DNA from: Escherichia coli O127:H6 str. E2348/69
GTDB lineage: Bacteria > Pseudomonadota > Gammaproteobacteria > Enterobacterales > Enterobacteriaceae
DNA length: 64,000 nucleotides
Assembly (NCBI RefSeq): GCF_000026545.1
Contig: NC_011601.1
Reading direction: 5' to 3' (one strand)
A program made the position numbers and the translations under genes. The notes below the pieces were generated by a model. It was given only the letters and a program-made list of their open reading frames with translations, had not been told where the DNA came from and searched no databases. This document shows positions 45,461-45,766 of the stretch, one piece after another; position 1 is the first letter of the stretch; each line of letters starts with the position of its first letter.

Positions 45461-45766
45461 TTAGCGCGTAGTGGATGTGGTGGTTGAGGTGTTATGAGAA
45501 CCGCCATCGCCACTGTCATTTGCTGCAACAACTGCCAACGTCGCCACACCAACAGCCGTTGCCACACCGACAGCCGTCGCCGTGCCGACAGCGCCAGCAG
45601 CCACGCCACCAGTGGTAGCTGCAGTCGTGGTTGCACCGGTAGTGGTCGTTGTGGTGCCAGTTGTACCCGTCGTTGCCTCGGCCCCGTTTGCTGCTTCAGG
45701 GGCAGCAAATGCAGCTGGCGTCGTCAACATGAAGGCCATAAGGATTGCAGAAAGCTTGTGTTTCAT
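45461..45766 (-). CDS. gfcA: Thr-rich membrane protein GfcA
   Basis: 101-aa product from ATG 45766 (MKHKLSAIL...) with long Thr/Gly/Ala-rich low-complexity core. Confidence 0.8.
   Translation of the reverse strand: MKHKLSAILMAFMLTTPAAFAAPEAANGAEATTGTTGTTTTTTGATTTAATTGGVAAGAVGTATAVGVATAVGVATLAVVAANDSGDGGSHNTSTTTSTTR

Follow-up and report, generated by a model that had tools for sequence, protein, structure and literature searches.

The GfcA protein of Escherichia coli O127:H6 str. E2348/69 contains a long tract made almost exclusively of Thr, Gly, Ala and Val. This raises the question of whether the tract is a mutable repeat, differing in length from strain to strain, or a conserved part of an envelope protein. 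A first-pass annotation, made from the letters of the surrounding 64,000 nucleotides (the whole stretch of DNA analysed, referred to below as the window), favoured slippage and length variation and suggested that the tract may be glycosylated or mucin-like.

The gfcA gene and the two modules of its tract

The gene and its operon neighbours are placed in the window as follows.

45461-45766, minus strand: gfcA (ymcD) coding sequence, 101 codons plus stop, from the list of open reading frames and its translation
45773-45777, minus strand: Shine-Dalgarno sequence AAGGA, 6 nt before the start codon of MKHK (45764-45766), read from the sequence
44709-45353, same strand as gfcA, downstream: gfcB ORF, with PF11102 (GfcB/YjbF)
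43966-44712, same strand as gfcA, downstream: gfcC ORF, with PF20616 and PF06251
41870-43969, same strand as gfcA, downstream: gfcD ORF, with PF06082 (GfcD/YjbH)

Translation of the minus-strand frame 45461-45766 gives a product of 101 residues, MKHKLSAILMAFMLTTPAAFAAPEAANGAEATTGTTGTTTTTTGATTTAATTGGVAAGAVGTATAVGVATAVGVATLAVVAANDSGDGGSHNTSTTTSTTR. A 651-nt query around the gene is 100% identical at the DNA level to E. coli E2348/69 (EPEC), and in other strains RefSeq annotates the same 306-nt coding sequence, with the same start, as 'threonine-rich inner membrane protein GfcA'. The E2348/69 protein matches the K-12-type WP_001295358.1, itself named GfcA by RefSeq, at 97 of 101 residues; with respect to the common K-12-type allele, four residues differ (A26T, A29T, A50T and A65V) and there are seven synonymous changes. 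An in-frame ATG at 45782-45784 offers an alternative start further upstream but, on inspection of the sequence, it is not preceded by a Shine-Dalgarno sequence. The ORF is thus gfcA, which opens the group 4 (O-antigen) capsule operon gfcABCDE-etp-etk and lies directly upstream of gfcB-gfcC-gfcD; the operon was defined in this same strain (Peleg et al. 2005, as cited in PMC8592465 and PMC4368438). The gene name assigned in the first-pass annotation is borne out by the identity to E2348/69, the domains of the three downstream genes and the RefSeq name.

The E2348/69 allele of the region 45300-45950 is rare, with at least 99% identity seen in only six of the 3,675 matching genomes and most of the others at 96-98%. 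On the opposite strand, two ORFs of 104 and 123 aa, at 45494-45808 (plus) and 45582-45953 (plus), cross the tract. Since the antisense of ACN, GCN and GGN codons is poor in stops, these look like by-products of composition, not genes.

The low complexity of the tract is real. Thr, Gly, Ala and Val make up 96% of residues 32-83 and 95% of the 56 residues 28-83, compared with a mean of 28% (sd 7%, maximum 54%) when the 49 other ORFs of the window that reach 150 aa are scanned in 52-residue steps of every position. Shannon entropy falls to 2.11 bits in the tract, whereas these other ORFs average 3.82 bits and go no lower than 2.97. The composition is far beyond chance. The coordinates 45461-45766, first given as those of the tract, do enclose it but are those of the whole coding sequence, the tract proper (residues 32-83) occupying 45518-45673. 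It is indeed written in repetitive codons, of the types ACN, GCN, GGN and GTN, and all four Thr codons are interleaved in it (ACG eight, ACC five, ACT four and ACA two). Thr accounts for 27 of the 101 residues of GfcA and for 32% of the mature protein, and Pro for two of the 101.

Along the protein, the following parts can be told apart.

45704-45766, minus strand: predicted Sec signal peptide, residues 1-21, MKHKLSAILMAFMLTTPAAFA, with an A-x-A motif before A-P at the putative cleavage site
45674-45703, minus strand: short acidic N-terminus of the mature protein, residues 22-31, APEAANGAEA
45605-45673, minus strand: Thr/Gly(/Ala) stretch, residues 32-54, TTGTTGTTTTTTGATTTAATTGG, 100% Thr, Gly and Ala, hydrophilic
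45521-45604, minus strand: hydrophobic Gly/Ala/Val/Thr core, residues 55-82, VAAGAVGTATAVGVATAVGVATLAVVAA, the family-conserved part of the tract
45539-45592, minus strand: imperfect tandem repeat of three 18-nt copies, residues 59-76, AVGTAT-AVGVAT-AVGVAT, found with TRF
45464-45517, minus strand: C-terminal tail, residues 84-101, DSGDGGSHNTSTTTSTTR, the local version of GGGDG(S/A)NTG-TTTTTTT-S-T-x-(R/Q)

The tract is therefore not uniform but consists of two distinct modules, the Thr/Gly stretch (residues 32-54) and the hydrophobic core (residues 55-82), in which the Kyte-Doolittle maximum over 19 residues reaches 2.04. In the alignment of the family described below, the final TGG of the Thr/Gly stretch aligns to the family core, and the Thr-rich part, approximately residues 32-51, is an insertion. 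An AlphaFold model of GfcA alone has a mean pLDDT of 51, with disorder in the Thr stretch and a helix at residues 60-83 of low confidence (pLDDT about 50).

Length of the tract within E. coli

The idea that the tract is a slippage-prone repeat, making GfcA variable or switchable through strain-to-strain differences in its length, draws on its low-complexity composition, on the imperfect 18-nt repeat and on some weak 17-nt similarities. The search for a repeat unit at the nucleotide level does yield that one array (TRF: period 18, 3.0 copies, 83% matches, the copies being 100, 89 and 78% identical), but no other tandem repeat, and the longest exact direct repeat in the coding sequence is 8 nt. 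Together with the mixture of Thr codons, this leaves little substrate for slipped-strand mispairing.

Tract length was assessed in two evenly spaced samples of genomes. The 651-nt gfcA region matched 3,675 of 5,426 complete genomes, and 38 full-length rows were taken along the ranking of these matches. They span 650 nt (651 in E2348/69 itself), except for one of 648 nt and five that carry an IS1 upstream. Six loci fetched from this sample, the 648-nt case included, and a divergent allele (H99/L090) are all annotated with a 306-nt coding sequence; the indels observed are confined to the gfcB-gfcA spacer, at 45357 and at 45366-45367. For the second sample, the coding sequence of the common K-12-type allele was used as query and matched 3,607 genomes, and every one of 58 evenly spaced full-length rows spans exactly 306 nt.

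These samples are complemented by the identity bands of all matches to the K-12-type coding sequence: 2,512 genomes at 99% or above, 1,068 at 95-99%, 26 at 90-95% and one at 80-90%. An indel of 18 nt would bring identity below 95%, so that gain or loss of a repeat unit is excluded in the 3,580 of 3,607 genomes at 95% or above, and at most 27 (0.75%) could carry one; the 90-95% band itself includes at least one 306-nt allele that differs by substitutions only. The census thus combines evenly spaced samples with identity bands, and for smaller indels, of 3-15 nt, the count of 0 in 96 sampled genomes sets a bound of roughly less than 3%. Differences among E. coli alleles consist of A/T and A/V replacements and synonymous changes, with a pN/pS of about 0.1-0.25, well below 1. 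Even in cryptic-clade Escherichia, at a pS of about 0.19, gfcA remains 306 nt long.

The few contrary cases come from databases, where some entries have a five-residue deletion, as in the Thr stretch of one protein (P0002), or frameshifts inside the tract. Most of the frameshifted entries derive from single contigs of raw-read assemblies, and they probably reflect sequencing or assembly errors in a GC-rich repetitive stretch. More than 12 such 'GfcA' variants shift, at differing points of the tract, into a 90-aa alternative frame at 45436-45708 on the minus strand (...QRLLVWRRWQLLQQMTVAMAVLITPQPP...). An exact look-up of four alleles, in 101-aa and 107-aa forms, found none of them in a collection of 15 billion proteins.

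Although species and genera do differ in tract length (see below), slippage as the explanation of the tract is very improbable. The first-pass annotation had itself named identical tract length across diverse strains as the observation that would count against it; since 96 of 96 sampled genomes keep one length, that reading is refuted within E. coli. The tract is neither a mutable repeat nor a switch for phase or length variation, and purifying selection maintains the composition and the length of both its modules.

The disruptions of gfcA seen in E. coli are caused by insertion sequences, not by slippage. One recurrent site lies just upstream of the gene:

45791-45799, 25-33 nt upstream of the gfcA start: IS1 site of K-12-type genomes (9-bp target duplication), from BLAST of the window against a K-12-type locus (L002) and the annotation of that locus

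The site is intact in the E2348/69 window, while IS1 is present in five of the 38 evenly sampled genomes; in K-12-type and several other genomes it parts the gfc operon from its upstream region. In NZ_LR536431.1 most of gfcA has been removed by an IS5, and in strain cM2a an IS1 on the last 10 nt of gfcA creates a fusion ORF of 318 nt. The whole gfc operon, which here takes up the segment from about 41870 to 46207, next to cspH, is missing from about one third of complete E. coli genomes: among the 5,426, gfcC is found in 3,696, gfcA in 3,607 and the cspH-gnsA flank in 5,416. In ATCC 25922 appA abuts cspH directly, and in O25b:H4 (ST131-type) and other genomes the break falls at the same point, 46207-46210 of the window.

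Relatives of GfcA across Enterobacterales

This protein is almost invisible to sequence searches. A phmmer search against 1.84 billion representative sequences gave only 13 matches, nearly all of them Escherichia fragments or frameshifted calls, and a word-indexed protein search retrieved similarly few relatives. E. coli GfcA matches no Pfam family and no NCBIfam model (at E≤0.01 for the latter), while a profile search of solved structures returned chance matches only (E≥0.06). We therefore turned to synteny. A profile of GfcB/YjbF homologues was used to collect 80 Enterobacterales loci, in which the ORF immediately upstream was examined.

A small upstream ORF of GfcA-like design is present in 77 of the 80 loci, and the remaining three have less than 250 nt of upstream flank. 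In the N-terminal part these ORFs share a signal peptide ending in A-x-A, a short acidic N-terminus and a variable region of Thr, Ser, Ala and Gly; in the C-terminal part, a hydrophobic core of Gly, Ala, Val and Ile, an acidic Gly motif, GGGDG[S/A]NTG, represented in GfcA by NDSGDGGSHNTS, and a poly-Thr tail that usually ends in Arg. Among 77 homologues, namely E. coli GfcA and YjbE together with the products of 75 operons, a run of seven Thr within the last 20 residues is found in 58, and a final Arg in 56.

The two modules of the tract fare very differently in this comparison. The GfcA core aligns with the hydrophobic segment of all homologues, G54, A56, G58 and G61 being invariant or nearly so. 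In contrast, the columns of the Thr stretch are gaps in every homologue from outside Escherichia, which marks the Thr/Gly half as an insertion specific to the Escherichia lineage. Judged by this alignment, the family-conserved features are the hydrophobic half and the C-terminal tail. In E. albertii GfcA is five codons shorter, within the Thr stretch, and across genera the homologues range from 71 to 115 aa. Tract length therefore shifts at the scale of species and genera, not of strains. Proteins of the YjbE type (loci L064-L088) are 80-81 aa long across Enterobacter, Citrobacter, Buttiauxella, Lelliottia, Yokenella and others, a striking conservation of length for a low-complexity protein, and their C-terminus, GGGDGSNTGTTTTTTTST(Q/R), is nearly invariant.

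The relationship between GfcA and YjbE is not evident from scores. Against the YjbE family of Pfam (PF11106, gathering threshold 27.9 bits), E. coli YjbE scores 113.6 bits and the Pantoea type 104, whereas proteins of the GfcA type all fall below the cut-off, with 27.6 (Cedecea), 18.5, 16.0 (E. albertii) and 15.2 (Enterobacter sp.), and E. coli GfcA gives no match even at E≤10. When a profile of Escherichia GfcA was compared with one of the YjbE/Pantoea type using hhalign, only the signal peptides aligned, with a probability of 94.7%. It is synteny and a common architecture, not a significant score, that make a divergent relative of YjbE the best description of GfcA.

Predicted export, membrane label and proposed role in capsule assembly

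All seven genes of the gfc operon are reported to be needed for the capsule (PMC4368438; PMC8592465). Deletion of gfcA in E2348/69 leaves the strain unencapsulated and also shifts the O-antigen ladder, and the capsule is restored by gfcA on a plasmid, pgfcA (PMC3853201, Thomassin 2013). This complementation demonstrates that gfcA acts in trans. With its low pN/pS and its conserved co-location with gfcB/yjbF homologues, gfcA is a real, selected coding gene.

These results bear on the proposal that the ORF is non-functional, being either a compositional artefact or a leader rich in Thr codons that would control gfcBCDE in cis by an attenuation-like mechanism. Its extreme composition, the lack of a Pfam or NCBIfam match, the mere 13 relatives found by HMMER and the long antisense and alternative-frame ORFs that overlap it might all be read in that way. 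However, besides the complementation in trans (PMC3853201), the reading frame is under purifying selection, and signal peptide, Shine-Dalgarno sequence and architecture are conserved in 77 operons. No terminator-like hairpin was found between gfcA and gfcB nor anywhere in 45300-46300. Trans complementation and the lack of such a hairpin together exclude a cis-regulatory leader, and the proposal as a whole is barely credible. Rfam likewise places no element around gfcA; its only match, over the leader and coding sequence of a gene two places upstream of gfcA, cspG, is the cspA thermoregulator RF01766 (156 bits) at 46550-46972 on the plus strand.

The grounds for calling GfcA an 'inner membrane protein', as the database entries do, are weak. 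GfcA has an apolar segment of 28 residues with N-D-S-G-D behind it, and the mature protein carries no basic residue other than its last. Mature homologues also mostly carry none or one basic residue (71 of 77), usually just the C-terminal Arg, with no positive-inside flank. A rough estimate of insertion energy, with translocon-scale values attributed to Hessa 2005, comes to +1.4 kcal/mol for GfcA and roughly +5 kcal/mol for YjbE. It is this flank, the scarcity of basic residues, the core of approximately ten residues in YjbE and the two energy estimates that weaken the label, and membrane anchoring of GfcA is doubtful. Sorting of the GlyGly-CTERM or PEP-CTERM kind was considered because of the layout of 'GG' plus apolar segment; it was rejected, as no NCBIfam/TIGRFAM model matched at E≤0.01 and the protein ends in an acidic, Thr-containing tail of 18 residues, not in a C-terminal basic cluster.

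We consider it likely that a single account covers these observations, in which the locus is the known gfcA, its tract is made of two selected modules and is not mutable, and its product is an exported accessory protein whose mechanism we infer. GfcA is a small acidic low-complexity protein, predicted to be exported through Sec with cleavage of its signal peptide. Its hydrophilic Thr/Gly stretch, probably disordered, was acquired by the Escherichia lineage close behind the signal peptide. Once exported, the putatively helical hydrophobic segment may associate with a membrane or with the envelope machinery of GfcB, GfcC and GfcD, and the Thr-rich arms would act as flexible hydroxyl-rich spacers. 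GfcA may thereby serve in trans as a structural accessory needed to assemble or retain the capsule polymer. Separating the dispensable-looking Thr insertion of Escherichia from the core and the poly-Thr tail shows which parts to mutate first.

Whether GfcA might be cargo of the LolA-like GfcB, or of GfcC, was addressed by running AlphaFold on a fused GfcA-linker-GfcB-linker-GfcC chain, with a paired alignment of 17 operons and with pLDDT and secondary structure as the readout. GfcB and GfcC are modelled at pLDDT 85-97, and GfcA at 22-33 with no secondary structure, so that a defined complex with GfcB/GfcC is not supported; the test is a weak one because it lacks GfcD and pair-error output and draws on only 17 sequences.

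A bolder alternative, which we regard as unlikely, makes GfcA the carrier or anchor of the polymer. Its Thr and Ser residues would be O-glycosylated, possibly with O-antigen, and its hydrophobic segment would behave like a lipid tail that GfcB/GfcC pass on to GfcD, a barrel with a lateral gate, with the effect of fixing the capsule polymer at the surface. The Thr content, the poly-Thr tail as the most conserved feature of the family and the constant position of the gene beside that of a LolA-like lipoprotein (gfcB/yjbF) are consistent with this. So is a modelling study in which GfcD has a lateral gate and exports anchored polysaccharide, and which calls GfcA itself 'entirely uncharacterized'. 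When the O-antigen ligase WaaL was lost, capsule formation also seemed to be affected, with a heterogeneous capsule as the outcome (PMC3853201). This idea has been put forward before: Larson et al. 2021 (PMC8592465), who noted a Thr content of about 30%, raised modification of GfcA by O-antigen as a speculation. Against it, the fused AlphaFold model shows no docking of GfcA to GfcB/GfcC, and Pro, typical of classical mucin domains, is missing from the tract. A glycosyltransferase gene was not found in the operon, and E. coli is not known to have a general O-glycosylation system. The capsule and GfcD literature examined does not report glycosylation of GfcA or YjbE.

Extended to the family, this alternative would make the relatives of GfcA and YjbE small proteolipid-like carriers, their poly-Thr tails, together with the Thr stretch in Escherichia, being O-linked to polysaccharide and their Gly/Ala/Val segments leaving GfcD/YjbH by its lateral gate to enter the outer membrane. 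This is quite unlikely in our view but, if true, such a carrier would supply the surface anchor long sought for group 4 capsules and for the yjb exopolysaccharide.

We return to GfcA as an exported accessory protein. The gene and its odd composition are already known in the literature, and the variability proposed in the first-pass annotation is absent in E. coli. Newly noted here, as minor points, are the escape of E. coli GfcA from PF11106, the weakness of the 'inner membrane' label and the lack of AlphaFold support for docking to GfcB/GfcC.

Comparison with known systems places GfcA as follows. With the GfcA of the group 4 capsule operon (Peleg et al. 2005, as cited in PMC8592465 and PMC4368438), the protein agrees in its length of 101 aa, its Thr richness and its place upstream of gfcB. 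It resembles contingency loci, in which coding simple sequence repeats undergo slipped-strand mispairing, in being a low-complexity coding sequence with a short tandem repeat, but it differs from them in having no perfect units, no length polymorphism in E. coli, scrambled synonymous codons and purifying selection. With mucin-like O-glycosylated linkers it shares high Thr, predicted disorder and a predicted extracytoplasmic location; unlike them, it has almost no Pro and no known glycosyltransferase partner, and half of its tract is hydrophobic. The closest counterpart is YjbE (PF11106), which is likewise encoded by the first gene of its operon, the Rcs-regulated exopolysaccharide operon yjbEFGH, upstream of a gene for a lipoprotein of the YjbF/GfcB family. 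Signal peptide, region rich in Thr, Ser, Ala and Gly, AVGVA-type core, acidic Gly motif and poly-Thr tail are common to both proteins, although YjbE has 80 aa, its middle is Ser-rich rather than Thr-rich and its hydrophobic core is only about ten residues long.
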